The notes under the pieces are model-generated. The model saw only the letters and a list, made by a program, of their open reading frames with translations. It searched no databases and was not told where the DNA came from. This document shows positions 6,401 through 32,663 of a stretch of 46,813 bases of DNA, piece by piece. Origin of the DNA: an uncultured Candidatus Peribacteria bacterium (lineage in GTDB: Bacteria; Patescibacteriota; Gracilibacteria; UBA1369; PNNO01); the NCBI GenBank assembly GCA_964585825.1, contig CAZPFH010000001.1:1-46813 (forward strand). Direction: 5' to 3'. A program made the translations under genes and the position numbers. How positions within the stretch are numbered: position 1 is the first letter of the stretch; each line of letters begins with the position of its first letter.

Positions 6401-9400
6401 GACGATATACCTATTAATTTTCGCATTACAGAAGCTACTCAAAAATATGCAAAAACTGATGGATTAACAGATACTGTAAGTACAGAAGGACAAGCATCGG
6501 GATACATAATAGGCAATGAGATTTCAGGACCGGTTCATGTTATTGCTTCTTCTCCGGGACTTATTTCCGGAACCGTTGAATTACAAGCAATAGAAATTAT
6601 TAGGCAAGAAGAATTTATCGGAGAATCTCCTCATGCACTTTATGGCACCATGCTTGGTGGTGCATACGGCGATACACAAACTGAAAATTATTTGGGAGGA
6701 GAACTGCTTTTCAGGGGAACTCTGCAAGCGATTACAGCTATGACTGTTCCGGCTAAGCTAAACGACTCATTAGTTACCGTTATGCCGCACGGTGGCATCG
6801 ACATCACTAATGAAAACCAAATAGAATCAAAACTTTTACCTTCAAACGGTAGCTTTATACCAAATCGGATTATGCTTTCAACGCCCGATACGCAAAAAGA
6901 TGTTGCAGAAATATACTATCAATATCCGGGTGACCAGTCGGTAAAAATCGTCAATGATACCACTACATTAAGCAACGGAATCTACCTTGTCCCAAAAACC
7001 AATGATCAACAATTTAATTTTAACAAATCAGGCAACAAAGCAAGTATTACAGTAAACGGCCTTGAAGCACTTAGTGTCAGCCAAAATGGCTCTATAACGC
7101 TCAACGATAATAATTTTGTCATAGATGTAAGTAAATCGGGAGGACCATTTCTGACGCTTGATATCGGATATAATAACACTTCGGTGGCACAAATTATATT
7201 CGCAATCAATCTTAACAACGACATTTCTATTGTCGACAACACTTTTGTCTATCAACCGGGATATCCTTATGCTCCAGGTATATATATCAAAGAGCTCCAA
7301 CCGTTCTCGACATATTTTATCGACACTATGTACACCACATCTTCCACTCAAGACCCAAAAGGTGCACATATAGGAAGCGGGGATATTGATATGCCGAGAG
7401 ATAAGGCTCCCGGATTTTCATATACATCGCTTGAAGACGTATATGAATCGTTCGGTGTCGGTTTTGACGGAGATAACAAACATTCTCTTTTCTTTGCGGC
7501 GGGTAACAGCGTCGGGCAATCGTCAAAACCATATGTTTCTGATGCGGCTATTAATCTTGGAGACCCTACTGTTCGCATTAAAAATGAACATCTTGCCGGA
7601 GCATCCGGCTTCACCGACGATGTTGGCAAGCCACTTTATTCATCGCAAGAAACAATACAAGAACTCATGCTCGCCGATTACAATAACGACGGCCTTGACG
7701 ACCTTATTGTAGCTTTTGAAAACGGTAACGTGCGTTTACTTGAAAGACAATTGTCAGCTGAGCCATATGAAGACAAAGGTTTATTGTTAGATCTTGCAAA
7801 TGGCATTTACAGTGCAGCATCAGCCGACTTTAACAATGACGGATATGATGATTTGCTTTTTGCCACACAAGAAAGTTGTATCGGTGATGAAGTATGTATT
7901 TACCTTTTCGAGAACAACGAAGGGGCCCTCAACAGGGTGCATATTCCGCTTGAAATAGAGGATAAAATAAGTTCTCTTATCATTGCCGATGTAAATAATG
8001 ATGATTATCCGGATATCATAACAGCTGAATTTGCAGGCAATATTAGTATATTTTACAACGAAAACGGTCTCATAAATCCTAAAGGTCAACTGCTTGAAAA
8101 TGTCGGCAATCATATTAGTTCCGGAACTGATCTTAAAGAAGAAGTTTTGATTAGTTATGAAGGTATGCCGACCGAGGATGAAACAACACTTGAAGATGAC
8201 TTTGATTATGAATATATACAACTTGAAATAGGTGATCCGTCGGGAAACAATGATGTCGACCCCGCATTACAAGAACAATTAGTAGAACTTGGAGCAGATC
8301 CTGCGGATTTTGCCACTCCGGTTGAAGTTGAATTTATTTATGCAGATGCAGATCCGATTTTCGGTACTGCGGATTCTTCAAAAACAGCAGTTGATGTTAA
8401 CGGATCTTCGTTGGCATTAGACGACAATATTGTTTATACCATTACGCTGACCAACACAAGTGCTAGCGATATAGACAATATTTTCGTCAGTGACATAGCT
8501 CCCGACTTGCTCGAAATAAACAAAGAATCGATTCAGTGTCTGCAATGTGAAGCCCCACCTACCATTCTTGAAACCGATCTTACTTTGAATCCATATGTCA
8601 TTACCGGAATTTCCATACCTGCGGGAGAATCGCGAACAATAACATACGAATCAACGGTTATTTCCGTTCCCGATATTGCTATTGATACAAACAAAAATTA
8701 TGACGTTGAATTCCCAAAAGATGACTATCTTGATATTCATGTACGCCCAGAAAACAACACTTCCGGAAAGATGTTATTCTTTTATTCAGTTTCAAAAAAT
8801 CCGGAAAACGGAAGAATGACATACGGTAAATATGTTGCAGAACCGACACCGAGCGATCCACCCGAATTGCCGTTTGATGATACGGATCTTAATAATAACG
8901 GTATACCCGATGAAATTGAAAATATTGCAAAAGAACAAAAAGAAGGCGACGAAGACGGCGATGGGATCCCAAACAGTTGGGATGAAGTTAATGGTACCCT
9001 GAACGATGTAAAAGATATCGTTTCCAATGCTATTCAAGATTACACCTGTAATGGAGGGTGTCTTCCCGTACCTATGAACAAGGCTTTCTTTGCCCCCGGT
9101 GAAAATAATAATATGGGAGCCAGCGCACCCCCTCCAGATAGCGGCACACCCGTTTTTGTATATGAACCTGTAAAAATATTCTTAAGTCCGACACTGACGG
9201 GTAATCTAGGTAACTCCGTGTGCGTTTCAGGCATGTGTTGGTCCATCACCGTTCCTTTATTACCACCCGATGTATGTGATCAAATAACCGGTGCCTTCGG
9301 TAACGCTATGGCAAACGCAGGCAATGTTGTCAGCTCTTTAGGTTCGAGTACATCTTTATTGGGAGGTGGCAGTGGCCCCGGCGGCGGCCCTTCTGTTTCC

Positions 9401-12400
9401 GGGAGATCAAACAGTGGCGGCGTCACCGGCAGTTCTGTTTTAGGAAATTATCAAGCAAGCGGATCTTCAAAAACAAATTCGCGAATACCCGGTTTCGTCA
9501 ATATTATTGCAGGATGGTTTGCAAAACAACTCGATGAAGTCGTAACAAAGCTCGCCGACTTGCCGGATCTTTACATTTTATACCCTGATCCGAATGCTTT
9601 CACTAGCGGAGTCCCCCCAAAAGCCGATTTCAAGAATCTTTCCGATGTCCTTACATATCTTAATAAATTACCTATTCTTGAAATCGAAGCACGGCCGATC
9701 ACTATTAAAATACCTGCTTTATCGCAAGCAGAAATCGAAAAGATGCAAACAAAGATGAAAAAATGGGTCGCGGACGCCAAAAGAGAGCTCGAAAGAGCAG
9801 AACTCAAATGGCCGTGTAACGCAGATCAAGCAACAAAACAAACCTGTATAAAAGCTGTTGGTGACGTGGAAAACACCATTAACAGTGTCGAAAAAAACAT
9901 AAAAATTCTCGAAGAATATAAACAATTGCCGCGCAAAATCCTCGAATGGCGCGAAATACAAACAAAGTATTTAACCCAGGTTATCTGTTATATCGACACA
10001 ATAATCAATTATATGGGCGGCTACTTTAAAAAACAAATGCTCCGCGTTAAAGGGTGGACGGATTTGATAACTGAAATCAAAGACATATTGGGGATATGGG
10101 AAGAATTGAACAATATGATGAAAGAATATATAAAAAATTGCGACACTTGTACATCGGACAGATACACGCTTTTCCAAACACTTGTTACAACCCTGACAGG
10201 AGCATTGCCTGAAATACCAATTATCCCTTTCCCAAAATGGCCGGATTTCTATTTTGACTTTTCAAAAATACAATTGGGATACAAAATTATTTGGCCCGAT
10301 GTTACGTTTCGTCCTGAAGAGATAATTCTTCCGAATATTCCGCCCCTTACTTTGCCGGACCTACCGCAAATTAATCCACCAATCGACAGTCTTAAAGTAG
10401 GCACAACTTTACCAAGCATACCAACTCTTCCCGAACCGCCAGAACTGCCTGAGCTACCGGACCTGCCTCCTATTCCGATGCCCGAACTGCCGGATATACC
10501 AAAACCACCAAAAATACCGGATATTGCCGGTCCGATAAAATCAGGATTAAGCGCCATAGGCAAAATTATCAAAATTGTCTGCATGTTAAAAAAATCAATA
10601 CTTCCTATTCCTGAATCCAAACTAAAAACACATATTGAAGCATTAACGGCGCGCTCTCTTGATGGAGTTTTCCCTATGGATCTGGCATTCAATTTTCAAT
10701 CACCTTCACTCACCTACCCTTTTGTCGAAAAAATTAAGGTTACCAGTAAAATGGATTTCAGATTGGAAACGGAAAAAATATATGAATCTGTTGAAAACGT
10801 AGCAAAACAATGGAATGAGATTGCAACCGATGTCGCAGAAAAACCACAAGAAGTTTCTGTGCCTGAAGCAGATATAGAAGGAACTCTGACATATGTCATT
10901 ATCAACGAATACCTTAAGGCAATCGCACTCCTGCAACATGCCGCGGATATACAAGAACAGTATATCGACTCTCTGCCGGAATCATATCACCTTATTGCAA
11001 ATCAATCATATATATCTACCGATTCAACAGTACAAAATCGCTCTCTTGAAGATATAAAAACAGCACTAAAAAAAGAAGATTTGCCCGACATCATGAATAC
11101 CAATACGCTGGTAAGTCTGCGACAGGGATTGATAGCATATGTAGATAATCAATCAACGCTCTTATCGGAATATAAATATACTGATATAAAAGAACTCATC
11201 GCCATGGAAGCAAAGGCAACCACATTAGGTGATCATTTAACAAAACGACGAGTAGCAGATCGCAAGCCACAACAAATCTCATATAATCCTCAATCTGAAA
11301 AACAAGAAAGTTTTTCTGAAATACGTGAATATGGAAAACGCTTATTAGCATTAAATACCAATGCCATTTCAGATGCCGTCGTTGACCAGGAAACGGCAAC
11401 CGGAGCACAAAGCGGTCAATCAATCGAAGGCCTTTACGTATATAATGAAGAAACAGGGGTAAATGAGAGAATTCTTATGTATGAAGGAGAAAGTTCATTA
11501 CCAAATCATGCTGTTATCGCAGATATAGACAATGACTCCGATGAAGACATTATTTATTCTTACGGTGGCAACATTTACCTGAAAGAAAACTATGAGAAGC
11601 CAAAAGACAGTATGCATCTTATGTATAACGCAACCAACCCAACAGTATATACCGTTAACGATTTTATACCGGCAAGTGAATCGGTACACGGTTTTGAAAC
11701 GACCTATGATTCAGGAACCTCGACCGACTTCGGCTGGGACAGTACATCATCAGGTTCAATTGCGGGATATGAAATTATTTATAAAGATTCACTAAACGAT
11801 ATGGACAGTACAACCTACACTCCTTCAGATAAAATTGTAGTATTGGAAAACATTGATACAAAAACAACTGTCGGTCGCATAAACAACGATATTGAAATAA
11901 CGGCTGTAGAAGGTTCATTTACAGTTAACGGCGAAACTTCTTCGTATTACGGCTTCGATGACACTATCACGACCGGCGAAGATGCAAATACTCGTGTTGT
12001 CATAACCTTCACCGACAGTAGCCAAGTTATTCTCGGACCAAATACAAGTTTAACCCTCCCATCGTACGAACCGGGCAATTTTGAAATAATCGTTCATTAC
12101 GGGAAAGCAGCGTTTAAAAGCAATTTTTTCACTAATATTTTCTTACAAGAAGGTTCCCGCGTTATTAATGAAGAGGCAGATGTAGTTCTTGAATACAAAA
12201 ATGGAGATATTATAGGACTTGATAAAGAAAGTTATTTCTTCGCCTCAACAAAGAGCGAAGGTATCGGCTACGTCCAAAGTCTTAACGGCAAAGCAACAAT
12301 AAAAACTACTCCTCGTTATACGGTAACATCAAATTCTTCCTCAACTAAAGTTCATAATGGACAAGTTATTCATGTTATGGAAGATAGCGTATTCACACTT

Positions 12401-15247
12401 ACACCTCCGGATAAAAACAAACAAATTCTCACTTTAAGCAAAAACACCATTTTACCTATTTCGACACAGTACGCATATGACCTTACATTACGTGTAGCAT
12501 CGGGAAAAGTGGAAATAATTGATAGTCAATCTCAAGAAATCGTAGAAAAAGAATTATCAGCCGGTATGCTTGTAAGCTTTGGCGACTCCATAACCATGAA
12601 AGAAGGATATAGCACTCTTGCATTTATAAACGGTGCCAGAACATATCTTGGCCCGGAAGACACATTGCAATTAGAAGAACTTGTTGATTCAAGCAATCCC
12701 TTCCTCAGTATAGATATACCTGAAGGAAATTACTACGGACAAATTTATTCTTTTGACGAACAAGGAAATAGGAGCAACCCGTCGGAAGTTGAGTTATTCG
12801 CTCCTCAATTGTGTTCGGACAAACAAAAACCTTATGCGGAAGCCGGAAAATCCGAAAAAGAGGTCATTATTTATCAAACACTGGATATTGATGCATCCAA
12901 ATCATTCGACACCGAAGGAAGTATTACAACATATTATCTGGACATTGATCCGGAAACAGATACTGATAATGATGGAGATAGCACAAATGACATAGATATT
13001 ATTAATGAGCCGAAAAACATTCCGCACTTTCAGCTTGGACCTTTTGAAGAAATAGACACGCATACCATAGTTTTAAATGTTTTGGACGAATCCCAAAACC
13101 GAGGGCAACAAACAATTAATATTAACGTTATCATCCCGACCATTACCCTTGACAACGCATCGGCCACAGAAGAAGTGATTACCGGATCCATAGATCCCGT
13201 AGCACAAGATATCCCTCTTGCGCTCATTCGAAATCGAGATGGATTACAAACACAACTTATAACCGAAGAAGCAAATGAAAACGGTATGTATCTAACAGAT
13301 GAAAAAGGCGAGTTCAGTATTCAAAAACTCATTTTTGAAGATACGTTGCTCCTTCGCAATATAGATGGTGATATTATAGCTGAAATAGACGACAAAACAG
13401 GAAGAATAACTATTGTTGACGAGCGCTATTATGTCGATGTGTTGGAAGCGATGCCCCCATCTATGCCAACACGACTTGTTGTAAAAGAAAAATTAACCGA
13501 CTTATTGCTTCTCACTATTTTGCTAATCCCGGATCAAAACACTGATGTAACCATTGATGATAACCAAATCAATTACACCAATGAAACGGTTGAAGAATTT
13601 GAAGGCGTACATATTAAAGATAGCAATATAAATGACACTTTAAACTTAAAACCATTACCGGCTTCAGATCCGAATTTTACCGGAGCCGCTGAGCTTATCG
13701 ACACGTCGACAGACACTCGAATGTCTATTATAGATTCCGGCGGCAATGTCTACTTCTTTGATGAAAAACTTGACTTGCAAATGAAAGCAGCAGGGCAAGC
13801 TGACCCTCTAACAATAGAAATGCTTTATGAAGGGTCGGTTATAAATGAAATGTATTTTGCCATTAACAATAATCGTCCGGCTGAAATTATGGATCGAGAC
13901 GAACTGGATATACCTTCTGAAGGAGACAAGATGTCAGATCAAGATAATGATGGTATGCCGGATTATTTTGAGTTCATGTATGGCTTTGATGCACTCGACC
14001 CAAAAGATGCGCTGCTTGATAGTGACGGTGACGGATTATCTAATCTCGAGGAATTTCGATTGGGAACCAATCCGCATAATGCCGATTCGGATAATGACGG
14101 CTATAGCGATAGCGAAGAAGTTGCTTTTGGAAAAGATCCAACAAAACCGGCAATATCACCGTTTGATGATGTTAACCCTGATCACCCCTATTATGATGCC
14201 ATCTTAGATTTATCACAAAAAAATATATTACGTGCAACAAATGAAAATGGAGGAATATATTTTAATCCGGACACCTTTATTGCCAGAAAAGATTTTACTG
14301 ACATTATCTTGAAAATGCTTTGTATTATACCGCGACCGGAAAGTTATCAGCCACCATCTCTTTTCTCAGACATCACGTACTCGGAAACAGATTATTATTA
14401 CGCAGTAATAAAAGAAGCTGTTTATCAAGGCTTCGTTACGGGATATTTAGGAGAAATTGATGCGGCAACAGGGCTTTCCCCATTCAAACCTGATATTAGT
14501 ATTTCTCGAGCGGAAGCTGTAAAAATTGTATTGGAAGCTCTGGAAAAACAAAAAATTATCACATTACGTGGCATAACTGAAATCGATAATTCCCCATGGT
14601 ATACGCCATATATGCACATAGCACAAGATTTGACACCGATATTGCTTGAAGAAAGTGCTGTTAATGAAACTTATATTGTTACACCCGAAGAAGCGCAGTC
14701 TCCAAACAAACCAATTACCCGAGCAGAATTTGTCGCTATGGCTGACCGAGTATTAAAGGCTTTTGATTGCTATGATATTGATGATGACGGCGATGGTATG
14801 CCAAGTGTGTGGGAATTGGATAATGGACTTAATCCGTTCGATCCAAGTAATGCCACAAACGATCCCGATAATGACGGGTTAACTAATCTGGATGAATATC
14901 GTTTCGGTACCAACCCATTTGACCCCGACACCGATGATGGTGGTATAATGGATGGAATAGAGGTTGAAAGAGGGACCGACCCTCTAGACCCTTCAGACGA
15001 CTTGCCTGACGCAGACGAAGATCTAATCGATCCTTCAGATGACCCGTCTGCTGAAGACACCGATCCGAGAAGTGGCCTTGAAGAAGGCATCTATATACTA
15101 ACTGAGCCATGCAATTCATGTCCATGTATATCAGCAGTCGATCACAAAGCAGATCTGATTCCGGGAGATATTTTCTTTACCGTTATAGGTACACCCGATC
15201 TCTCTACAATATTTACCAAAAGTAACGAACTCATTTATGAAAAATAA
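338..15247 (+). CDS. Giant (4969 aa) secreted, cell-wall-anchored mosaic surface protein (putative adhesin or appendage protein)
   Basis: Uninterrupted 14.9-kb ORF with ATG start and an N-terminal signal peptide. It carries multiple recognisable extracellular modules (TSP3, SLH, Ig-like, FG-GAP, DUF11-like, PKD-like). No internal TM helix was seen. Confidence 0.9.
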   Translation: MKHHYLYKKLQRFVCGMLIPMLLASQLVIPSTVHAQFGNQENPPKQVTSLIAIVVDESLIEDDTPYEGLTTDYPDELGAQTLRDRIYRFARDTQLADPFTRSIILRVDENQNPHDIAQALETLYFKGDQAEETASQLEGVITVGDVPLPVVNKNGFRFVSMLPYSDFAEPAYVYNPTTREFEYNQDTINPKVEAWHGVIKSPSAETEAAFDYASYFDKNHLFHQGHQDFNTFDQELLFADMIWEQEMYDETMGTRYENYIEFMEDIAYRRFSKELIKEIIGEQESEEDLIDEDGDFDLESLSSPDTFAGVPDAHSKIILMSYVAKFNELFKNYLQKANDLVEGTGRYKKYDSIVKLITIKDLHTQEYLRMVNDAVERRVDDIVTPLQGTIPIIETATIGGTVTYDDDTTANLISWNFTNNNIQSYNDPVLGTYDTVYYYGKPAPSLESAEECTLFRGNAELNRLYNRETEDNHSSAEDYGYCYGANAETPERCFPDIASKWIFDEDGSMANEDISPYAKGIGGCYDFRETSRFNTYLSEVASYILALSFASTEAEKDAIPLPGSKYRPVENITLLGSPSISLKDILDIYGGFDGKDNDGDGSIDEADEYNLDYKINANDPYEIGYKLLGNRKNFFVINNPPFDGIKRINLQITQQATDFNQGIDSITYHKEPTVETIQHHLEKGTIDTLPIDDPRYVSFVDQNGVYHEIVYPNTFKADGVANYLQELIDLEDYLMQLPGANSSTIEGALQDVLEAEETKYLDTEKQIMDKTSYEEARDIIWWKNATIDKKHIYAFNRYLDSSYNTYTTENENGYEYFYFTADGNPNEVHFALNKDPTIIEQDPEWLDPESQLDPSLEETLEDDDDNDALSEAIPLAEWIVYLVEYLSELSKLPEGLSFQPACGDGQNNIATAIENLTDEERKEIFGDSNENGIPDGAENTTVLKLRFENNSNMIRTGSTETYDLHVEAQDATGLPNYFDSYTELYLVLSDNESPKARIYGSDSVKLVNGQAVFSINATDIAGDFTARVVSTNTEETITSNVLTITSEARRIRLLTYETQLFEPPSYEEEILKDYLVLDDDEETIATIDANTGKINIIDLEYEVAVFESTANQPMRIAIIETQSGNTMASVSLVPDFSSEDTVTVRDTAFTDQSLTSIEGVQVYDVNQNDNIDIYNDNAVVYIVDNRSEYTKRIAKITPQGDIFLGDEYFIDIANEENTDQPYLFVLEDAAGNDIVQIGIAYRLGSMTTHENLISNINEIIDRFANIAYAQSASEKDTDNDGLNDLEEFILNTNRIDKDTDKDGFNDGEEITYGYDPLKKDTRLFTDLDPQDPSYEAFTTLLLRGIIQQHPDNKVRPQDNITREEFVQMVLGITCTNCSSFSEQTKEEVDNNYDQSPFPDSDIDPNYEYCIKEAKNIDVVSGYEGDQDTGFFKPKYYISRAEATKVTLEAAGIDSTKYIDPAQPWYYRYVMAAQENNIYPHALPQEGFSTWIQSPITRAEFAMMVQKAIKSFDCYVIDDDNDGLPNNFEYYQYNTDPNSADTDGGGLDDLDEILRNKDPFDPSDDLLLDDDNDGMTNQWEEQYNLDPYDPADAYFDDDNDGLVNLEEFNNQTDPLNPDTDGGGVNDGDEVLLQTTDPLDSSDDQDNPSLQSGIHAFGDIIQDTAYRIVEEGEAKEVPNYINNLPADGESRLFLAAEILDENGDININDSSSTIQFSIEDSSTTTVDIEQNQVKALEGVALTQISSTTKAGLVDITASRAGSPLPIETHQVFVEPLEPVQLSVQAQSPVIKAGGLSKTPITITLKDRYGNIVNNDFYEMTVWHDGPGRLDQEADTKKDIDGVQLQSFEGTFYVDLYSAEEPGSIIVHAKVNDLYNTATVDSLEDIEFELSADKEIIRANGEDSVIITARAVDSEGKRIEQFSQSITFDHESKNVGNFIGEKTIPMEEGRASIEFTSSTKKGPLEITASAPGIAPGRLTLTMQANTPVKIKLHPADQKFDASSLQPTEIIAKLYDQYDNFVDHVDDIPINFRITEATQKYAKTDGLTDTVSTEGQASGYIIGNEISGPVHVIASSPGLISGTVELQAIEIIRQEEFIGESPHALYGTMLGGAYGDTQTENYLGGELLFRGTLQAITAMTVPAKLNDSLVTVMPHGGIDITNENQIESKLLPSNGSFIPNRIMLSTPDTQKDVAEIYYQYPGDQSVKIVNDTTTLSNGIYLVPKTNDQQFNFNKSGNKASITVNGLEALSVSQNGSITLNDNNFVIDVSKSGGPFLTLDIGYNNTSVAQIIFAINLNNDISIVDNTFVYQPGYPYAPGIYIKELQPFSTYFIDTMYTTSSTQDPKGAHIGSGDIDMPRDKAPGFSYTSLEDVYESFGVGFDGDNKHSLFFAAGNSVGQSSKPYVSDAAINLGDPTVRIKNEHLAGASGFTDDVGKPLYSSQETIQELMLADYNNDGLDDLIVAFENGNVRLLERQLSAEPYEDKGLLLDLANGIYSAASADFNNDGYDDLLFATQESCIGDEVCIYLFENNEGALNRVHIPLEIEDKISSLIIADVNNDDYPDIITAEFAGNISIFYNENGLINPKGQLLENVGNHISSGTDLKEEVLISYEGMPTEDETTLEDDFDYEYIQLEIGDPSGNNDVDPALQEQLVELGADPADFATPVEVEFIYADADPIFGTADSSKTAVDVNGSSLALDDNIVYTITLTNTSASDIDNIFVSDIAPDLLEINKESIQCLQCEAPPTILETDLTLNPYVITGISIPAGESRTITYESTVISVPDIAIDTNKNYDVEFPKDDYLDIHVRPENNTSGKMLFFYSVSKNPENGRMTYGKYVAEPTPSDPPELPFDDTDLNNNGIPDEIENIAKEQKEGDEDGDGIPNSWDEVNGTLNDVKDIVSNAIQDYTCNGGCLPVPMNKAFFAPGENNNMGASAPPPDSGTPVFVYEPVKIFLSPTLTGNLGNSVCVSGMCWSITVPLLPPDVCDQITGAFGNAMANAGNVVSSLGSSTSLLGGGSGPGGGPSVSGRSNSGGVTGSSVLGNYQASGSSKTNSRIPGFVNIIAGWFAKQLDEVVTKLADLPDLYILYPDPNAFTSGVPPKADFKNLSDVLTYLNKLPILEIEARPITIKIPALSQAEIEKMQTKMKKWVADAKRELERAELKWPCNADQATKQTCIKAVGDVENTINSVEKNIKILEEYKQLPRKILEWREIQTKYLTQVICYIDTIINYMGGYFKKQMLRVKGWTDLITEIKDILGIWEELNNMMKEYIKNCDTCTSDRYTLFQTLVTTLTGALPEIPIIPFPKWPDFYFDFSKIQLGYKIIWPDVTFRPEEIILPNIPPLTLPDLPQINPPIDSLKVGTTLPSIPTLPEPPELPELPDLPPIPMPELPDIPKPPKIPDIAGPIKSGLSAIGKIIKIVCMLKKSILPIPESKLKTHIEALTARSLDGVFPMDLAFNFQSPSLTYPFVEKIKVTSKMDFRLETEKIYESVENVAKQWNEIATDVAEKPQEVSVPEADIEGTLTYVIINEYLKAIALLQHAADIQEQYIDSLPESYHLIANQSYISTDSTVQNRSLEDIKTALKKEDLPDIMNTNTLVSLRQGLIAYVDNQSTLLSEYKYTDIKELIAMEAKATTLGDHLTKRRVADRKPQQISYNPQSEKQESFSEIREYGKRLLALNTNAISDAVVDQETATGAQSGQSIEGLYVYNEETGVNERILMYEGESSLPNHAVIADIDNDSDEDIIYSYGGNIYLKENYEKPKDSMHLMYNATNPTVYTVNDFIPASESVHGFETTYDSGTSTDFGWDSTSSGSIAGYEIIYKDSLNDMDSTTYTPSDKIVVLENIDTKTTVGRINNDIEITAVEGSFTVNGETSSYYGFDDTITTGEDANTRVVITFTDSSQVILGPNTSLTLPSYEPGNFEIIVHYGKAAFKSNFFTNIFLQEGSRVINEEADVVLEYKNGDIIGLDKESYFFASTKSEGIGYVQSLNGKATIKTTPRYTVTSNSSSTKVHNGQVIHVMEDSVFTLTPPDKNKQILTLSKNTILPISTQYAYDLTLRVASGKVEIIDSQSQEIVEKELSAGMLVSFGDSITMKEGYSTLAFINGARTYLGPEDTLQLEELVDSSNPFLSIDIPEGNYYGQIYSFDEQGNRSNPSEVELFAPQLCSDKQKPYAEAGKSEKEVIIYQTLDIDASKSFDTEGSITTYYLDIDPETDTDNDGDSTNDIDIINEPKNIPHFQLGPFEEIDTHTIVLNVLDESQNRGQQTININVIIPTITLDNASATEEVITGSIDPVAQDIPLALIRNRDGLQTQLITEEANENGMYLTDEKGEFSIQKLIFEDTLLLRNIDGDIIAEIDDKTGRITIVDERYYVDVLEAMPPSMPTRLVVKEKLTDLLLLTILLIPDQNTDVTIDDNQINYTNETVEEFEGVHIKDSNINDTLNLKPLPASDPNFTGAAELIDTSTDTRMSIIDSGGNVYFFDEKLDLQMKAAGQADPLTIEMLYEGSVINEMYFAINNNRPAEIMDRDELDIPSEGDKMSDQDNDGMPDYFEFMYGFDALDPKDALLDSDGDGLSNLEEFRLGTNPHNADSDNDGYSDSEEVAFGKDPTKPAISPFDDVNPDHPYYDAILDLSQKNILRATNENGGIYFNPDTFIARKDFTDIILKMLCIIPRPESYQPPSLFSDITYSETDYYYAVIKEAVYQGFVTGYLGEIDAATGLSPFKPDISISRAEAVKIVLEALEKQKIITLRGITEIDNSPWYTPYMHIAQDLTPILLEESAVNETYIVTPEEAQSPNKPITRAEFVAMADRVLKAFDCYDIDDDGDGMPSVWELDNGLNPFDPSNATNDPDNDGLTNLDEYRFGTNPFDPDTDDGGIMDGIEVERGTDPLDPSDDLPDADEDLIDPSDDPSAEDTDPRSGLEEGIYILTEPCNSCPCISAVDHKADLIPGDIFFTVIGTPDLSTIFTKSNELIYEK
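3150..3480 (+). other. Isolated Ig-like (Big_1/invasin-like) domain
   Basis: TVLKLRFENNSNMIRTGSTETYDLHVEAQDATG...VKLVNGQAVFSINATDIAGDFTARVVS follows the pattern of bacterial Ig-like group 1 domains. Confidence 0.4.
4163..5270 (+). repeat. Cassette A: TSP3 repeats, then 3 SLH-like domains, then TSP3 repeats
   Basis: DTDNDGLNDLEE and DTDKDGFNDGEE are D-x-D-x-DG-x-x-D Ca-binding repeats. Three SLH-like units follow (F-x-D...ITREEFVQMVLGI; ...ISRAEATKVTLEAAGI; ...ITRAEFAMMVQKAI). Then come KSFDCY and five more DDDNDG / DTDGGG repeats. Confidence 0.7.
5381..6595 (+). repeat. Array of four tandem Ig-like (Big_1-type) domains
   Basis: Four units of about 100 aa each. They contain ADGESRLFLAAEILDENG, AGGLSKTPITITLKDRYGN, ANGEDSVIITARAVDSEGK and DASSLQPTEIIAKLYDQYDN, each ending in a ...ITAS / HAKV / IASSPG strand. 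Confidence 0.65.
7673..8070 (+). repeat. Three FG-GAP/VCBS-type repeats
   Basis: ADYNNDGLDDLIVAFENGNV, ADFNNDGYDDLLFATQ, ADVNNDDYPDIITAEFAGNISIFYNENG. Confidence 0.65.
8381..8660 (+). other. DUF11-like (conserved repeat) beta-sandwich domain
   Basis: KTAVDVNGSSLALDDNIVYTITLTNTSASDIDNIFVSDIAPDLLEI...ISIPAGESRTITYESTV. Confidence 0.5.
9331..9475 (+). repeat. Gly/Ser-rich low-complexity linker
   Basis: VVSSLGSSTSLLGGGSGPGGGPSVSGRSNSGGVTGSSVLGNYQASGSS. Confidence 0.8.
10331..10525 (+). repeat. Proline-rich (D/E)-L-P periodic segment (polyproline-II-like spacer)
   Basis: PNIPPLTLPDLPQINPP...LPSIPTLPEPPELPELPDLPPIPMPELPDIPKPPKIPD. Confidence 0.8.
12826..13130 (+). other. PKD-like domain
   Basis: KPYAEAGKSEKEVIIYQTLDIDASKSFDTEGSITTYYLDID...HTIVLNVLDESQNRGQQTININV fits the P-x-A-x-AG...LD-x-S-x-S-x-D-x-x-G-x-I-x-x-Y pattern. 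Confidence 0.5.
13937..15070 (+). repeat. Cassette B: TSP3 repeats, then 3 SLH-like domains, then TSP3 repeats (paralog of cassette A)
   Basis: DQDNDGMPDYFE, DSDGDGLSNLEE and DSDNDGYSDSEE come first. SLH-like units follow (FDDVNPDHPYYDAILDL...ARKDFTDIILKML; FSDITYSE...ISRAEAVKIVLEAL; ...ITRAEFVAMADRVL). Then come KAFDCY and DDDGDG / DPDNDG / DPDTDDGG. The 15-nt string CTTTTGATTGCTATG is shared with cassette A (4866-4880 and 14760-14774). Confidence 0.7.
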
Positions 15248-15785
15248 TCGCATACCAAGTATCATCGCTATTCTAATTACTGTAGTATTCTCGTTTCATA
15301 CGGGAATAGTACATGCCCAAGAATCAGATTTAAGTACTAAAGATACGAAATGTGTTGAAGAAATGAAACCGTTCATGGAAGAGAAAACAACTGAATTTCG
15401 TGAATATCTAACGCAACATTTTCAAAGTAAAAAAACAAACACTTCACTTCTTGATCTGGCTTTAAAGCGATTTGAGCTCTACAAAAAAGACCTTCGCGAT
15501 AAATATAAAACATACTTCGCCGAAACCGGAAAAGCCATTTTCAGTGAAACGCACGACAATTTATCATGTAAAAAGAAAATGGATGAAGAAATTCAAACAA
15601 TGGAATTGTTGTTAAAAAGCTACTATAAACAAACATCAAATATTAAAACAAGCACCGCATACATGACAAAATTGCAGCAAATAAACAAAAAACTAGACAC
15701 ATTGGTTTTTAATATCACTCAAATGTTGGGCAAATGGAATTCGCTGGAAAATCGCATTCCATGTTTCGTTAAACAATGCTTATGA
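15237..15785 (+). CDS. Small secreted helical protein P1 (182 aa), C-terminus ...PCFVKQCL*
   Basis: The ATG overlaps the giant gene's end by 11 nt. Signal peptide IPSIIAILITVVFSFHTGIVHA-QE. K/E-rich helical composition with 4 Cys in the mature part. Confidence 0.75.
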   Translation: MKNNRIPSIIAILITVVFSFHTGIVHAQESDLSTKDTKCVEEMKPFMEEKTTEFREYLTQHFQSKKTNTSLLDLALKRFELYKKDLRDKYKTYFAETGKAIFSETHDNLSCKKKMDEEIQTMELLLKSYYKQTSNIKTSTAYMTKLQQINKKLDTLVFNITQMLGKWNSLENRIPCFVKQCL

Positions 15786-16405
15786 AAAACACAATAAAAA
15801 AATGTCTACAAATCGGCATTCTTATCATAACAGTGAGTCTATTCATCTGTTATGCATCGATCATATCACGTGCGAATTCAACTATAAATCCGTACGATAC
15901 ACCGGATAAAACCATTCAAGAAGTTGAGAAATCTTATCATAAACGTATTAATGAAATATTTAACGCCAAGTTAACTCTTTTAAAGCAAGGAGAAGATGGT
16001 AATGGTACAACCGAAATACCAAAAAATGATGAATGTAGCGAAAACAACTACAGTACTTATTGTTTAGCTATGACAGTCGCCAAAGAATATGATCTCTATA
16101 ATGCCGCCCTCGGGAAAAGGAAGGCGGTTACAAATCCGCAAGAAGAAGAAACCGTTGATCAATTGGCACTTCGTACTATCGCCGAACACAATGAAATAAA
16201 AAATGAACTTGATAGATCAAAAAAAGCCCTTGATATAAGCATAAAGACGTATGATGAGCTTTTAGCTGCTTACCGTATGCATTTGCAATATGAAAAAATT
16301 ATTGAAAGTATAACAAAATATAATAAAAAGCTCATTGAGTTCCGGGAAGAAGTTGACAAATTACCCGGAAAATTCATTGATGCTACCACAACACAATGCA
16401 CCTAA
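15782..16405 (+). CDS. Small secreted or membrane-anchored helical protein P2 (about 207 aa), C-terminus ...TTTQCT*
   Basis: ATG 15782 overlaps the P1 stop as ATGA. The track's ATG 15776 lies inside the P1 Gln-Cys codons CAATGC. Hydrophobic N-terminus IGILIITVSLFICYASII. Confidence 0.7.
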   Translation: MKNTIKKCLQIGILIITVSLFICYASIISRANSTINPYDTPDKTIQEVEKSYHKRINEIFNAKLTLLKQGEDGNGTTEIPKNDECSENNYSTYCLAMTVAKEYDLYNAALGKRKAVTNPQEEETVDQLALRTIAEHNEIKNELDRSKKALDISIKTYDELLAAYRMHLQYEKIIESITKYNKKLIEFREEVDKLPGKFIDATTTQCT

Positions 16406-16410
16406 TAACT

Positions 16411-17886
16411 ATGAAAAAAATACTGCAATACATATCGATCATCTTTATTTACTCGTTTATTAGCATAAATGCAGCTTGTGCTGCCACAAGTCCCGTTGAT
16501 GAACTTATTGAGGAGTTTGAAGGTAAATCCAAAACAGCGCTTGCACAAGACATGTATCTGCAGATCTATAAAGATATAAATGATAAACCTAAAGAACAAG
16601 CTGCTAAAAACGTTTCCAGCACTTATTCAATGACTGAAGATCAAATCAATAAGCTTGTTCAAGAAGGAGATTTATCGGCTATTATAAAAGATGATAAAAA
16701 CGCGGATCTAAACAAAGTACTGTTACAATACCAGAAAATAGCAAATGATTACCAACGTACTTTAGAAACGGAAAATATCCGCAGTGAACTTACTATGGAA
16801 ACAAAGCCAAGCGAAGTATTCATGGATGGAGACACATCAAACTCAGAATTTGATATATTATATGATCTAACAATTATTGAAGTTATTTTATTTAATGAAG
16901 CCTCAACTAGTGAATTTGGCGGACAATTTACGGCCCCGGATTTTAATTTTACCGATGAAGAAGAAAAGAAGTTGATTGAAGAACTATTTGATACAACCTC
17001 AACGGATCAAACAACTCAACAAAGCGCTACCCAGAGCGATAACAGCTTTTCCGCTTTACAATGTTTAGGCGAAGAATCAGCGCTTAATGAAGCGCTTTCC
17101 GAATATGAAGATAGACAGAAAACAAACGGTGAAGAAGGAGATTCGTCCAATGAAGACTATCAAGGAGATGAGCCTGTAAATGCGGAAAACTTTCCAAAAG
17201 CGGAAAGCGATCCATGGCCATCAAAATATTTATGTCCTGACGGCGCCTTTTACTGCATAGATATCTCTTTCGATTTAAAAGCGGCAAAAGCACACGGAAA
17301 AACGGATAATTGCATTGCATGTCATGTGCAAAAAATAAATGAATCACTCGATAAATTATTAAGCAAACCTCTATCGGCAAACAAATTAACAGGAAACCTC
17401 TTAGAAGTACCAAAATGTAAGGCCTCGTATAGCAATATACCGGTAAATATGAATATTATTTTGCTTGCGGTTACACCTCCGCGACAAGCAAATCAAGATA
17501 AATATGTAAAATTGGATATCAATAAAGAATGGATAAATCTAAAAGAACGACTTAATGTCTTTTTCTACAATACTGACAACCCTCCACCCGAAACCAAACT
17601 TGAAGATAGAAGTGTCAAAGAGGCACTTCAAGCCGCACCCGATAATCCAAGCCTTAACAATGTTTCGTTACGAGCTTCCAATAGAACACAGCAAACACAA
17701 GAAAAAGTTACCGAAAATGCGGAGACAAAAAAACAAGAGAACAGGACGGAACTGAACAATACTGAATATCAAATGGTTATTAATGAAATGGAAACAATGA
17801 AGCAATCTTTTCAAACTATATTAACGAAATTAAAAGAAATGAAAAAGCCATGCAACAATATCGCCAATAAATCTTATTGCCAATAA
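16411..17886 (+). CDS. Secreted protein P3 (about 491 aa, possibly a lipoprotein), C-terminus ...PCNNIANKSYCQ*
   Basis: ATG 16411 gives MKKILQYISIIFIYSFISINAAC-A, a signal peptide with a non-canonical lipobox-like INAAC. The track's ATG 16396 again lies inside CAATGC of P2. An acidic T/Q-rich middle is followed by a Cys-rich block containing CIACH. Confidence 0.7.
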   Translation: MKKILQYISIIFIYSFISINAACAATSPVDELIEEFEGKSKTALAQDMYLQIYKDINDKPKEQAAKNVSSTYSMTEDQINKLVQEGDLSAIIKDDKNADLNKVLLQYQKIANDYQRTLETENIRSELTMETKPSEVFMDGDTSNSEFDILYDLTIIEVILFNEASTSEFGGQFTAPDFNFTDEEEKKLIEELFDTTSTDQTTQQSATQSDNSFSALQCLGEESALNEALSEYEDRQKTNGEEGDSSNEDYQGDEPVNAENFPKAESDPWPSKYLCPDGAFYCIDISFDLKAAKAHGKTDNCIACHVQKINESLDKLLSKPLSANKLTGNLLEVPKCKASYSNIPVNMNIILLAVTPPRQANQDKYVKLDINKEWINLKERLNVFFYNTDNPPPETKLEDRSVKEALQAAPDNPSLNNVSLRASNRTQQTQEKVTENAETKKQENRTELNNTEYQMVINEMETMKQSFQTILTKLKEMKKPCNNIANKSYCQ

Positions 17887-17889
17887 TAT

Positions 17890-18915
17890 ATGAAAAAAAG
17901 CATCATACGAAAAATAGGAACCATAGGAATACTTTTAATAGTAAGCGTTGCAACTCTGGGTACGGAACATGTTCGTGCACAAGAAACAACAATCTCATTA
18001 AACACTTCTTGCTTTACCGAATGGGATACGTTTATTTCTTCAACAATTTCCGTTGATGAGTTTTTAGAATACTGGACCGACATCCTGATCCGATATAATC
18101 GAAACACATGTTATTACATGGATATACAATATGTACTTAAGCAAATTGATACAACTCGTTCAGCCCTTCGCAAAGCCATTTTAGCATGTGACGATGACCA
18201 AGTTGGACCACTCAAAACACGTTTTTACGAATTGAAGTTAGAACTTGATTACCTGCGCTTATTTGTTTCTTTTGCAGATAAAGGAGGAAGACTTATTTCG
18301 GAAGAAAAAGTTTATAAACAATTAAAAGAAAAATATGTTGATACGGGTCTTGATTTTACCAAAGAAGAATTCGATATATTGTTCGACCGCTATCAAACAA
18401 AATATAAAGGAAACTTCTCATCAATATATCAGAGGTGTAGTGACGGAAGCATAAAGCAACTTGTAGACAGATGGGATAAACTTGTCGAGACCTTGAAATC
18501 AATGCAAGCAAGTTCAAAAGCGGTTAAAGCAGATTTCGACAGGGCGATTAACAAGCCGCCGCAAGGTATGCAGAATTTTATAAAAAATCTCGAACAAGCG
18601 CAAAAAGAATCAATAGAAGCACAAAAAAATCCTGAAGAAATTTTCAATCAAACAACGCAGGAAACCGGAACCGAACCAACTATTGATCAACTTACCGTTG
18701 CAATAGAAGAAAACAAACAAGATTATCAAGAAAAAATACAACAGGCGTCGTTAACCGCAAAATACGAAGCCTTGTATAAACATGGTGGAGATAGCCTTGC
18801 CGAGAGCTATGAAAAGGTATTAAAGGATCTTGATAAGATAGTAAAAGACTCTTACAAGCCACTGGAAGACCTTAAGCGATGTGCTAAAGAGTCTGCCGAT
18901 CGACAATGCCAATAG
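17890..18915 (+). CDS. Small secreted helical protein P4 (341 aa), C-terminus ...RCAKESADRQCQ*
   Basis: The ATG is 3 nt after the P3 stop. Signal peptide IGILLIVSVATLGTEHVRA-QE. 6 Cys in the mature part. The operon terminator follows. Confidence 0.75.
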   Translation: MKKSIIRKIGTIGILLIVSVATLGTEHVRAQETTISLNTSCFTEWDTFISSTISVDEFLEYWTDILIRYNRNTCYYMDIQYVLKQIDTTRSALRKAILACDDDQVGPLKTRFYELKLELDYLRLFVSFADKGGRLISEEKVYKQLKEKYVDTGLDFTKEEFDILFDRYQTKYKGNFSSIYQRCSDGSIKQLVDRWDKLVETLKSMQASSKAVKADFDRAINKPPQGMQNFIKNLEQAQKESIEAQKNPEEIFNQTTQETGTEPTIDQLTVAIEENKQDYQEKIQQASLTAKYEALYKHGGDSLAESYEKVLKDLDKIVKDSYKPLEDLKRCAKESADRQCQ

Positions 18916-18918
18916 CAC

Positions 18919-18956
18919 AAAAAACTCCCGAAGGAATGTTGTGGGGAGTTTTTTGC
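18919..18956. terminator. Bidirectional rho-independent terminator between convergent operons
   Basis: AAAACTCCC (18921-18929) pairs with GGGAGTTTT (18944-18952) around a 14-nt loop. It is flanked by an A-run on the left and a T-run on the right, so it reads as hairpin plus U-run on both strands. Confidence 0.7.
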
Positions 18957-19001: not shown

Positions 19002-19172
19002 TTAACGATGCACTAACGCCAAAATAGTTCCTTTCAGTTTCGTTTTTATCAAATGGTCACGCTGTGGTCTATTTAATTTGCAATTAATGTCAGTGATGTC
19101 TGTCTTACAATAAGGACAGATATCGCGATGGCTCGAAACAGCTTTACCGCAACTGATACAATTGAAGATCAT
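19002..19172 (-). CDS. Small zinc-ribbon protein (56 aa), absent from the ORF track
   Basis: ATG at 19172 (minus), 10 nt after the HTH gene's TGA. Translation: MIFNCISCGKAVSSHRDICPYCKTDITDINCKLNRPQRDHLIKTKLKGTILALVHR*. It has two CxxC knuckles (C5/C8 and C19/C22) and ends just before the bidirectional terminator. Confidence 0.5.
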   Translation of the reverse strand: MIFNCISCGKAVSSHRDICPYCKTDITDINCKLNRPQRDHLIKTKLKGTILALVHR

Positions 19173-19182
19173 AGTAGGATTT

Positions 19183-19497
19183 TCACTCTAAGATATAATG
19201 GTCGCTTTGATTTTCCGGCATAGTTGTTGTTACTTCTTCTTGTACTTCTTCATTGTTTTCTTCTTTCTTAGGTGTTTCACTTTTTTTAGGTTCTTTAGAA
19301 GCTATGGATCTTTCTTCGAGAAACCGCTCAACATCTCTTTCACGTATCCTCCATACTCTTCCCAGCTTTATACCTTTAAGTTTCCCTGCTTTCAAATATT
19401 TCAAAACAGTAAAAGTGTGCACCTGGAGGATTTTAGAAACCTGCTCTGAGGTAAGTAATTTATCGGGTATCAATTTAATAAATTTAATTCTGGACAA
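19183..19497 (-). CDS. Excisionase/MerR-type helix-turn-helix DNA-binding protein with an acidic/lysine-rich tail
   Basis: LLTSEQVSKILQVHTFTVLKYLKAGKLKGIKLGRVWRIRERDVERFLEE matches the excisionase-family HTH pattern. The start is TTG (19497) or the in-frame TTG at 19473; there is no ATG. Confidence 0.75.
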   Translation of the reverse strand: MSRIKFIKLIPDKLLTSEQVSKILQVHTFTVLKYLKAGKLKGIKLGRVWRIRERDVERFLEERSIASKEPKKSETPKKEENNEEVQEEVTTTMPENQSDHYILE

Positions 19498-24993: not shown

Positions 24994-26775
24994 ATGGCTA
25001 AAAAGACTTCTGCCAAGCCGGATATAGAAAAAATGAGGCATTCATGCGCACACGTGCTTGCACAGGCGGTTTTGCAAATGTTTCCCGAAGCAAAGCTCGG
25101 TTTCGGACCGGCAATTGAAAACGGTTTTTACTATGATTTTGAGCTGCCCCGCACGCTTATCCCTGAAGACTTACCTCTTTTGGAAAAGAAAATGAAACAC
25201 ATCATTAAGCAAAATCAGAAGTTTAAAATGATGGAAAAGCCTATTGATAAATCGATTACATTTTTGAAAAAGATTAATCAAGATTATAAAGCGGAAGCTG
25301 CACACGACCTACAAAAAGAAGGTTTTGACAGCATTACATTCTACGAAAATATAAATCAAAAAGGCGAAGGCACCTTTGTTGATATGTGTGAAGGCCCTCA
25401 TCTGGAAAGTTCCGGGAAAATAGGGGCCTTTAAATTAACACATACAGCCGGTGCTTATTGGCGCGGAGATGAAAAAAGACCTATGCTGCAACGTATTTAC
25501 GGCGTTTGTTTTGCGACAAAAGAAGAGCTTAATACGTATTTAAAACAACTTGAAGAAGCCAAAAAACGTGACCACAGACGGCTTGGAACCGATCTTGACC
25601 TTTTCATGTTCGATGAAGAGGTAGGCGCGGGTCTTCCGTTATGGCTGCCAAAGGGGGCCTACGTACGACATAAAATCATGGATTTTGCCTTTAACACCTA
25701 CTTGGCAAACGGTTATGAACCGGTATGTACCCCTCATATTGCCAATGTTGCATTATGGAATCATTCCGGCCATTTGGACTTTTACGGAGATAGCATGTAT
25801 GGATCGCTTACGATTGATGAAGATGAATATCGATTAAAACCAATGAATTGTCCCTTACACGTTAAAATGTATAACGCCTCTATGCGCAGTTATCGCGATT
25901 TACCGTTTAGATGGACGGAAATGGGTACCGTCTATCGTTACGAACGAAGCGGGACGCTTCACGGCCTCACACGGGTACGAGGATTCACACAAGATGACGC
26001 GCATATTATCTGCAGACCGGATCAACTGAAAGAAGAACTTGAAAAAGCACTTGATTTAACGCTCTATATTTTAAATACATTCGGTTTCAAAGATATTGAA
26101 ATGAATGTAAGTGTCCGTGATCCGGAAAATAAAGATAAGTTCATTGGAGAAGATGATCGATGGGAACAAGCGGAAAACACATTAAAAGAAGTTTTGGAAA
26201 AATCCGGATTTAAAGATTATGTATACGATATTGGAGGAGCCGTTTTCTACGGCCCAAAAATCGATGTTAAAGTAGCCGACTCAATAGGTAGAAAATGGCA
26301 GCTTTCAACTATTCAATTCGATTTCAATCTTCCTTCTAGATTTGGAATGACTTACGTGGGAGAAGATGGAGAGGATCATACCCCGTTTATGATTCACAGA
26401 GCTTTACTGGGCTCTCTTGAACGCTTTATTGGTGTTTTGATTGAGCACTACGGAGGTGCCTTCCCGGCATGGCTGGCCCCAACACCAATCGTCTTCGTTC
26501 CGGTTGCGGAAACACATGAAGCTTATGCGCAAAAAATGCTTGAGAAGTTTAAAGAAGCGGGCATAAAGGCAGAGATTTACCTTTCGGATGACACATTGGG
26601 GAAACGAATCAGGAATGCGGAAATGAAAAAAATACCGTACATGGCCGTTGTCGGTGACAAGGAAGTAAAAGCAAAAAGTCTTGCCATTCGCAGCTATAAA
26701 ACGAAAAAACAAGAAACCGTTAAGGCCGATAAATTCTTATCTACTCTTCAAAAAGAGATAGCTGATCGTGCTTAG
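24994..26775 (+). CDS. thrS: Threonine--tRNA ligase (lacks the N-terminal TGS domain)
   Basis: 593 aa. It starts directly at the editing-domain motif MRHSCAHVLAQA. It has a class II core (FRWTEMGTVYRYERSGTLHGLTRVRGFTQDDAHI) and a C-terminal anticodon-binding domain. Confidence 0.95.
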   Translation: MAKKTSAKPDIEKMRHSCAHVLAQAVLQMFPEAKLGFGPAIENGFYYDFELPRTLIPEDLPLLEKKMKHIIKQNQKFKMMEKPIDKSITFLKKINQDYKAEAAHDLQKEGFDSITFYENINQKGEGTFVDMCEGPHLESSGKIGAFKLTHTAGAYWRGDEKRPMLQRIYGVCFATKEELNTYLKQLEEAKKRDHRRLGTDLDLFMFDEEVGAGLPLWLPKGAYVRHKIMDFAFNTYLANGYEPVCTPHIANVALWNHSGHLDFYGDSMYGSLTIDEDEYRLKPMNCPLHVKMYNASMRSYRDLPFRWTEMGTVYRYERSGTLHGLTRVRGFTQDDAHIICRPDQLKEELEKALDLTLYILNTFGFKDIEMNVSVRDPENKDKFIGEDDRWEQAENTLKEVLEKSGFKDYVYDIGGAVFYGPKIDVKVADSIGRKWQLSTIQFDFNLPSRFGMTYVGEDGEDHTPFMIHRALLGSLERFIGVLIEHYGGAFPAWLAPTPIVFVPVAETHEAYAQKMLEKFKEAGIKAEIYLSDDTLGKRIRNAEMKKIPYMAVVGDKEVKAKSLAIRSYKTKKQETVKADKFLSTLQKEIADRA

Positions 26776-28873: not shown

Positions 28874-28880
28874 AAACCCC

Positions 28881-28920: not shown

Positions 28921-28925
28921 ATTTG

Positions 28926-32627: not shown

Positions 32628-32663
32628 GATTTATCTTTGACAGATTATGTTTTTGTTATTTTA

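Follow-up and report, generated by a model that had tools for sequence, protein, structure and literature searches.

The 46,813-nucleotide (nt) stretch of contig CAZPFH010000001.1 studied here, referred to as the window, was placed in Candidatus Peregrinibacteria by homology searches. Directly downstream of an open reading frame (ORF) of 4,969 amino acids (aa), four genes on the plus strand (15237..18915) encode small proteins, here called P1 to P4, in each of which cysteine is the penultimate residue. P1 to P4 probably form a heteromeric bundle of helices whose C-terminal ends are held closed by an interchain disulfide knot, because the tail cysteines covary across the proteins and not within the chains in related loci. 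Pairs of tail cysteines appear to have been gained or lost in matched fashion between the proteins, and most likely serve to hold the four chains together covalently as a single complex.

The Four Small Proteins and the Position of Their Terminal Cysteines

The four genes and the codons of the cysteines considered below are listed here. Signal peptides were judged by eye as a basic, then hydrophobic, then AxA-like leader, and bonding partners are predictions from covariation.

15237..15785, plus strand: P1, 182 aa, Sec-type signal peptide followed by a helical protein, ending in RIPCFVKQCL-stop, with the tail IP-C176-FVKQ-C181-L-stop
15782..16405, plus strand: P2, 207 aa, signal peptide followed by a helical protein, true start at 15782, ending in DATTTQCT-stop
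16411..17886, plus strand: P3, 491 aa, true start at 16411, signal peptide, ending in KPCNNIANKSYCQ-stop
17890..18915, plus strand: P4, 341 aa, signal peptide and helical N-terminal domain, ending in KRCAKESADRQCQ-stop
15762..15764, plus strand: codon of P1 Cys176 (C1a), predicted partner P3 Cys490
15777..15779, plus strand: codon of P1 Cys181 (C1b), predicted partner P4 Cys340
16397..16399, plus strand: codon of P2 Cys206 (C2), tentative partner P3 Cys336
17416..17418, plus strand: codon of P3 Cys336, in a conserved TGNLxExxKCK motif, tentative partner P2 Cys206
17851..17853, plus strand: codon of P3 Cys481 (C3a), predicted partner P4 Cys331
17878..17880, plus strand: codon of P3 Cys490 (C3b), predicted partner P1 Cys176
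18880..18882, plus strand: codon of P4 Cys331 (C4a), predicted partner P3 Cys481
18907..18909, plus strand: codon of P4 Cys340 (C4b), predicted partner P1 Cys181

The ORFs and C-termini that a first-pass annotation of the window had given for P1 to P4 were confirmed on the sequence, as were the ATG triplets at 15776 and 16396 lying inside CAATGC, and its counts of mature cysteines (4, 3, 8, and 6 for P1, P2, P3, and P4, respectively) proved correct. In P1, C39 and C111 are near-invariant. P2 contains C85-x8-C94 internally and terminates in KFIDATTTQ-C206-T-stop. P3 contains six core cysteines (218, 275, 282, 301, 304, and 336) and, after a long C-terminal helix, the tail P-C481-x8-C490-Q-stop. 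In P4, C41 covaries with C100 and C74 with C183, each within the chain; the protein also has a long helix in its C-terminal part and terminates in C331-x8-C340-Q-stop.

Cysteine makes up 0.88% of the residues in the proteins of the window, and therefore penultimate cysteines in four consecutive genes (expectation about 6e-9) are not due to chance, which is excluded as an explanation. The first-pass annotation had described Cys-X-stop as a property of all four proteins. This holds in the subclade of the window (L001-L007, P3 identity at least 42%), in which the cysteine counts of 4, 3, 8, and 6 are also invariant, but not across the order, where the position drifts. For P1, 1, 2, 3, and 4 residues follow the last cysteine in 18, 6, 36, and 5 of 69 sequences, respectively, and the tail cysteine is absent in four. 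Of 74 P2 sequences, 73 have the cysteine at the penultimate position. In P3, C-x8-C-X-stop with a penultimate cysteine was found in 42 of 73 sequences and the terminal cysteine was absent in 30; sequences deviating from the pattern have only the first cysteine, only the last, or neither. For P4, 0 to 5 residues follow the last cysteine and 4/75 sequences lack the tail cysteine. These alignments indicate that the exact penultimate position is a clade feature and a cysteine at the chain end the general one. The glutamine preceding the terminal cysteine, which had also been pointed out, is conserved in P4 as [KR]QC but not in P1 to P3. Homologs lacking the penultimate cysteine, named beforehand as a refuting finding, do occur among distant P3, P1, and P4 proteins, whereas P2 retains it in all but the one sequence. 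On the alignments, we regard the losses of the terminal cysteine in distant homologs as an informative signal rather than a refutation, as set out below.

Covariation of Tail Cysteines Between Proteins

To a matrix of tail cysteines we admitted the 60 loci that could be scored for all six of the C1, C3, and C4 residues. The following patterns were observed.

All six tail cysteines present: 38 loci
C1a and C3b absent (pair a): 6 loci
C1a, C3b, C3a, and C4a absent (pairs a and b): 13 loci
C3a and C4a absent (pair b): 2 loci
All six tail cysteines absent: 1 locus

Only these five patterns occurred, each a union of the pairs C1a-C3b, C3a-C4a, and C1b-C4b, and no orphan tail cysteine was present in any of the 60 scored loci. 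Loci added later agreed: L089 lacks only C3a and C4a, and L091 lacks all six. In L064, L072, and L089, P3 retains the last cysteine only and P1 retains both. In the loci without pairs a and b, the remaining tail cysteines reside on two different proteins, P1 and P4, and intrachain bonding is therefore impossible in some genomes.

The last point bears on the simplest alternative, according to which each protein closes its own C-terminal loop (C-x4-C in P1, C-x8-C in P3 and P4) as a staple of its fold, with the P2 cysteine remaining free. Both tail cysteines stand at short spacing in every chain of the window and of 38/60 scored loci, and the identical C-x8-C spacing in P3 and P4 resembles a shared motif. 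However, 22/60 loci hold exactly one cysteine of a within-chain pair, while the state of the cross-chain partner always matches; within-chain pairs share only 0 to 1 changes on the tree described below, compared to 8/8 for cross-chain pairs; and an AlphaFold2 model of P4 has both cysteines in one helix, at low confidence. We therefore consider intrachain stapling improbable. A disulfide-stapled fold common to a paralog family, one of the two interpretations in the first-pass annotation, was not borne out, as the within-chain tail pairs do not covary and hhalign gave moderate evidence of common ancestry for P1 and P2 but none for P3 and P4. The other, a covalent assembly signal, is supported by the cross-protein covariation.

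In an all-against-all scan, we compared all 78 cysteine-containing alignment columns from P1 to P4 and the last 2,400 residues of the protein encoded by the 4,969-aa ORF, hereafter the giant protein. The relevant column pairs are listed below.

P1:176 and P3:490: both present in 40, neither in 23, discordant in 0, ranked first overall
P3:481 and P4:331: both present in 46, neither in 21, discordant in 1 (L062)
P1:181 and P4:340: both present in 60, neither in 2, discordant in 0
P2:206 and P3:336: both present in 65, neither in 1, discordant in 0

As positive controls, the scan recovered the intrachain pairs 41-100 and 74-183 of P4, 301-304 of P3, and several pairs within the giant protein. The single discordant case, a P4 protein of L062 apparently lacking its tail cysteines, was an artifact: an in-frame TAG interrupts the ortholog at L062:2780..2790, and the frame runs on behind it to a normal C-x8-C tail containing both cysteines. 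This TAG could be a sequencing error, a pseudogene mutation, or a case of recoding. An apparent P3-P4 fusion in L039 was likewise discarded as an exception, since a run of N marks a scaffold gap. The only double loss for P2-206/P3-336 was found in L075, where QC-x-stop of P2 is replaced by SSQVP-stop and KCK of P3 by KYK. The first-pass annotation had suggested that the odd cysteine of P2 is free for an intermolecular bond; the data fit this, but its partner P3-C336 was assigned from this one genome. As a separate observation, one clade (L021-L027 and L046) has gained two additional cysteines in P2 and two in P3 together; intrachain and interchain pairing of these residues are not separable because a single clade is concerned.

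Covariation of clustered cysteines between proteins would also arise if the tail cysteines of several chains jointly bound a metal ion or cluster at the end of the bundle without forming disulfides. This we rate as even less probable than intrachain stapling. The losses occurred strictly two at a time and in defined pairs, the number of ligands would fall from six to four to two, and the 13 loci with only two cysteines would have no stable metal site. Moreover, no histidine, aspartate, or other ligand covaries, and the export of the proteins suggested by their signal peptides favors disulfides.

Independence of the Changes

To count independent events, a neighbor-joining tree was calculated from the concatenated P1-P4 alignment without the last 25 residues, and changes were assigned by Fitch parsimony. 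Three changes each were obtained for C1a and C3b, four each for C3a and C4a, and one each for C1b and C4b. Without exception, the partners changed on the same branches (8/8 for the cross-chain pairs), whereas the within-chain tail pairs shared only the 0 to 1 changes mentioned above. In 39 bootstrap trees, 2 to 4 changes were found for C1a and 4 to 5 for C3a. We then placed the same number of changes randomly on the tree, weighted by branch length, in 300,000 trials. The partner pattern was reproduced in 0/300,000 trials for P1-176/P3-490 and likewise for P3-481/P4-331; for P1-181/P4-340 it was reproduced in 2.7% of the trials (p ~0.027). Each of the two losses in L075 is otherwise unique among about 74 genomes, and the chance of their co-occurrence is therefore about 1/74. 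Taken as sequence evidence, these data lend strong but indirect support to a covalent assembly of the P1-P4 tails.

Proposed Wiring and Assembly of the Complex

The bonding partners were deduced under the assumption of a pairing common to all lineages. The pattern in which only C1b and C4b are left then implies a bond between P1 and P4, the pattern also holding C3a and C4a a bond between P3 and P4, and the pattern with C1a, C1b, C3b, and C4b a bond between P1 and P3. If the pairing is indeed constant, a ring of three bonds (P1-176/P3-490, P3-481/P4-331, and P4-340/P1-181) would be the unique consistent solution. The equal x8 spacing in P3 and P4 would place their partner cysteines at equal heights, and the geometry is coherent: P3 and P4 would lie parallel and in register with their first cysteines facing each other and their last cysteines bridged by the short P1 tail. 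The hydrophobic periodicity of all four C-terminal regions, calculated from mean hydrophobicity, is strongest at 3.40 to 3.55 residues. AlphaFold2 predicts, at low confidence in both cases and with predicted local distance difference test scores below 50 to 65, a helix at 415-485 of P3 and a helix at 265-340 of P4 that is continuous through C331 and C340; in the latter, C331 and C340 (i and i+9) face opposite sides of the helix.

On this basis, we propose that each small protein would be exported by the Sec system, as its signal peptide suggests, and that the C-terminal amphipathic helices of P1 to P4 would then pack as a parallel heteromeric bundle whose chain ends are covalently closed by interchain disulfides. 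P3 and P4, in register, would be joined directly by P3-C481 to P4-C331. Nine residues further on, the C-x4-C clasp of P1 would bridge the last cysteines by the bonds P3-C490/P1-C176 and P1-C181/P4-C340, so that a closed ring of three bonds results. The lone penultimate cysteine of P2 would probably bond to P3-C336, as a tentative assignment. A covalent 1:1:1:1 heterotetramer at the cell surface would result. Its most likely role would be that of an accessory part, a stalk, or an anchor for the adhesin-like giant protein with its SLH, FG-GAP, and TSP3 domains, which is a guess from operon linkage only. Large cysteine-rich extracellular proteins and a disulfide-forming protein have been reported for Peribacteria genomes (PMC4736985).

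Several points weigh against the proposed knot. Covariation alone suggested the disulfides, and the support for two of the four bonds is narrow: P1-181/P4-340 goes back to one evolutionary event (the L067 clade, with which L091 agrees) and P2-206/P3-336 to the single genome L075 (p ~0.014). A proline directly precedes the first tail cysteine in P1, P3, and P4, and therefore the tails may not continue a coiled coil. The parity of the cysteines is odd, as the invariant residues 218, 275, and 282 of P3 leave one residue over. The AlphaFold2 models of P3 and P4 are too poor to assign a fold with confidence, with predicted local distance difference test scores of 53.5 and 59.1, respectively. With respect to the giant protein, no cysteine in its last 2,400 residues covaries with P1 to P4 in the all-against-all column scan, no homology to P1 to P4 was found (hhalign probabilities <3%), and only operon linkage ties it to the small proteins.

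Comparison with Known Systems

By mechanism, the nearest analogs of the putative knot appear to be the disulfide rings of fibrinogen and the C-terminal β1-γ1 disulfide of laminin. In the fibrinogen rings, each chain contributes two closely spaced cysteines, each bonded to a different neighbor. The ring predicted for P1, P3, and P4 would have the same topology. It differs in that the proteins are bacterial rather than from a vertebrate and show no sequence or domain homology, that the ring would be located at the extreme C-termini only with spacings of x4 and x8 instead of x3, that the fourth chain P2 would attach elsewhere, and that the ring has been dismantled pair by pair in many lineages. 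In fibrinogen, disulfide rings flank the coiled coils (PMC5713436). Laminin is a heterotrimeric extracellular coiled coil, in which a disulfide connects β1 and γ1 near their C-termini and the β1 helix is continuous to the bond (PMC5343747). An interchain disulfide near the C-termini of heteromeric extracellular helices is thus the likeness to P1 to P4; the differences are that laminin, a eukaryotic matrix protein, has one such bond between two of its three chains, that its LG, LN, and LE domains are absent from P1 to P4, and that there is no homology. Searches of Pfam, NCBIfam, PHROG, PADLOC, and the PDB revealed no laminin or fibrinogen homology of P1 to P4 beyond low-complexity helical noise, and the knot would be analogous, not homologous, to these systems. 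As in disulfide-locked heteromeric coiled coils, several different secreted chains are made together, judging from the common operon, the co-occurrence of the genes, and the signal peptides. The knot would represent a variant of a known structural principle in unannotated families of an uncultured lineage.

Type IV pilins have a cysteine pair near the C-terminus of a secreted subunit of a surface structure, the D-region loop. This loop is intrachain and pilins carry a class III prepilin leader, whereas the leaders of P1 to P4 are of the ordinary Sec type (K/R-rich, hydrophobic, AxA). A pilin-like loop was rejected for P1 to P4, as their leaders are not class III and their within-chain tail pairs do not covary.

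A further possibility is that the terminal cysteine is modified, for instance by lipidation or as a thioester, or attaches the protein to the cell wall, to the giant protein, or to a host cell, and that the covariation reflects shared lineage history. The P2 cysteine, penultimate in 73/74 sequences, forms part of a conserved F-I-D-A-T-T-x-x-C-x-stop motif, and in this P2 is closer to having a recognition motif than P1, P3, and P4 with their tails. On the other hand, the tails fit no known sorting or lipidation signal, having neither a C-terminal hydrophobic helix nor CaaX spacing nor a lipobox, and the distance of the cysteine from the end drifts by 0 to 5 residues in P1 and P4. Matching presence and absence over 2 to 5 independent events is not expected from lineage history alone, and in L075 the loss of the P2 cysteine coincides with that of P3-C336 and of no cysteine in the last 2,400 residues of the giant protein. 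We therefore assign a low probability to this explanation; for the attachment signal that the first-pass annotation had offered, no evidence of attachment or sorting was found.

Individual systems were rejected on the following grounds. CaaX or CXC prenylation disagrees with the Sec-type leaders seen on all four proteins and with the 0 to 5 residues after the last cysteine of P1 and P4. For the C-terminal sorting signals LPXTG/sortase, PEP-CTERM, GlyGly-CTERM, MYXO-CTERM, and the like, neither a hydrophobic segment nor an NCBIfam or Pfam match was present, and the chains end 0 to 5 residues past the cysteine. A lipoprotein nature was dismissed, as the leader cysteine of P3 (NAACAA) is absent from orthologs (QTASAA) and no cysteine occurs at the cleavage region of P1, P2, and P4. 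An α-pore-forming toxin of the ClyA/Hbl/MakE type had as its only match NCBIfam MakE with an E-value of 0.26. When the P4 model was compared with the PDB by Foldseek, nothing matched at E 0.001 or better and no E-value was under 0.9, a weak negative given the low confidence of the model.

Sequence Families and Internal Relationships

Searches with P1 to P4 against Pfam, NCBIfam, PHROGs, and PADLOC yielded only sub-threshold coiled-coil noise (ZorA tail, tape measure, MakE), and the profiles of P3 and P4, searched against PDB sequences, matched designed armadillo repeats and apolipoprotein A-I, both compositional noise. By these searches, none of the four proteins appears to belong to a known family. 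Pairwise BLASTP detected no similarity among them. In hhalign comparisons after removal of the signal peptides, P1 and P2 matched with a probability of 80% (E 1.4e-5), colinear to the C-terminus, and are probably distant paralogs, for which the evidence is moderate; for P3 and P4 the probability was 31% or less. An initial match between P1 and the N-terminus of P4 (92%) vanished (1.4%) once the signal peptides were removed.

The motif C301-x2-C304-H of P3 (window 17311..17325) contains a CxxC that is near-invariant (72/73) and is probably a vicinal disulfide or redox motif; both cysteines are replaced together by serine in L036, as expected for a disulfide pair. A c-type cytochrome site, which the motif resembles, was rejected here, as the histidine is glutamate in one entire clade (CIACE, CIQCE).

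Distribution of the Gene Cassette

Loci for comparison (L001-L093) were obtained by exact look-up (9), from GTDB species genomes (72), from metagenome contigs (9), and by further look-ups (3). P4 had 14 close homologs, in which all six cysteines are invariant, and a P3 profile matched 482 representative proteins at E<1e-3 among 1.84 billion. The cassette recurs in about 90 Peregrinibacteria/Peribacteria loci as a common block of the giant gene, P1, P2, P3, P4, and a convergent HTH_17 gene, usually with UvrA, PrsW, RecF, and ThrRS beyond. Hidden Markov models built from the first loci and run on the loci then collected detected P1 in 71, P2 in 74, P3 in 82, and P4 in 78; all four small genes were present together in more than 70 loci, and in 58 loci P1 lies next to the end of a gene longer than 1,500 aa. 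The cassette is conserved throughout Peregrinibacteria/Peribacteria. Nearly all records were labeled Peregrinibacteria, Peribacteria, Gracilibacteria, or unspecified Patescibacteria. Two loci (L054 and L080) are located on contigs of metagenome-assembled genomes labeled Nitrospirae and Oceanicoccus and are most likely mis-binned Peregrinibacteria.

In the literature searched, no description of the cassette of one giant and four small genes was found. Anantharaman et al. (2016) described very cysteine-rich Peribacteria proteins averaging 1,655 aa (PMC4736985). Common to that report and the present work are the lineage and exported cysteine-containing surface proteins with FG-GAP annotations and a presumed role in attachment, but the cassette, the terminal cysteines, and interchain bonding are not described there (PMC4736985).

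Operon Organization and the Giant Gene

The features flanking the four small genes are the following.

338..15247, plus strand: gene of the giant secreted protein (4,969 aa), which opens the operon, assigned by ORF and Pfam matches
15110..15127, plus strand: EPCNSCPC motif in the C-terminal region of the giant protein, three cysteines invariant in 48/48 relatives
18918..18955, no strand assigned: probable bidirectional intrinsic terminator consisting of an A-tract, a 12-bp hairpin, and a U-tract (-16.5 kcal/mol, z -3.4)

P1 begins with the ATG at 15237, so that its start and the stop of the giant gene overlap by 11 nt, and the ATG of P2 (15782) overlaps the P1 stop codon as ATGA. The starts of P3 (16411) and P4 (17890) are 5 and 3 nt past the preceding stop codons, respectively. 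The hairpin at 18918..18955 is positioned between P4 and the convergent zinc-ribbon gene; a consensus terminator scan limited to loops of 8 nt missed it because its loop comprises 14 nt. This element probably ends the operon as a bidirectional intrinsic terminator. Owing to the tight or overlapping junctions and the terminator behind P4, the giant gene and P1 to P4 look like one translationally coupled operon.

According to Pfam, the giant protein contains SLH, bacterial TSP3, FG-GAP, Big_1/invasin, and DUF11 domains. The cysteine cluster EPCNSCPC that had been noted near its end was found at this position with its cysteines fully conserved in the relatives, and none of them had a covarying partner in the scan. 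Thirteen cysteines in the last 2,400 residues, including those of the C-terminal CxxCxC, are invariant in 48/48 relatives; they fall within nt 15110..15127 and residues 2904-4930. For the variable lone cysteines 2908 and 3217, no covarying partner was found either. A P-like module or a partner cysteine within the giant protein was rejected on the hhalign and covariation results given above. In L003:1..7378, the giant gene was called as two ORFs (2815 and 1613 aa), which points to a possible split or frameshift.

Peregrinibacteria are uncultured, probably host-dependent bacteria of the candidate phyla radiation and unusually rich in huge uncharacterized proteins (PMC11573180, PMC4736985). It is conceivable, though doubtful, that the giant gene and P1 to P4 encode a lineage-defining extracellular apparatus in which a disulfide-ringed heterotetrameric stalk carries or anchors an adhesin of about 5,000 residues that grips host cells. 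If true, these bacteria would possess a novel type of surface organelle based on a covalent interchain knot, a device hitherto known only in matrix and clotting proteins of animals, and the knot would have been simplified stepwise in some lineages. Defined here are a five-gene surface operon conserved across the order and four unannotated protein families. Sequence alone yields a specific wiring diagram, stating which cysteine would bond to which across four proteins; it is directly testable, so that the complex becomes experimentally tractable. The presence/absence covariation of cysteines between neighboring genes would thereby have recovered quaternary structure where AlphaFold models were poor.

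Beyond P4, a 56-aa zinc-ribbon ORF and the HTH_17 gene are located on the minus strand (window 19002..19497), convergent to P4. In all related loci of sufficient length, short contigs included, P4 is followed by an HTH_17 gene, which may encode a dedicated regulator. Further downstream, six consecutive large ORFs on the minus strand (window 26741..38631; 713, 1233, 759, 484, 564, and 165 aa) have no Pfam match; the first two are syntenic in relatives, and the block is another uncharacterized conserved one.

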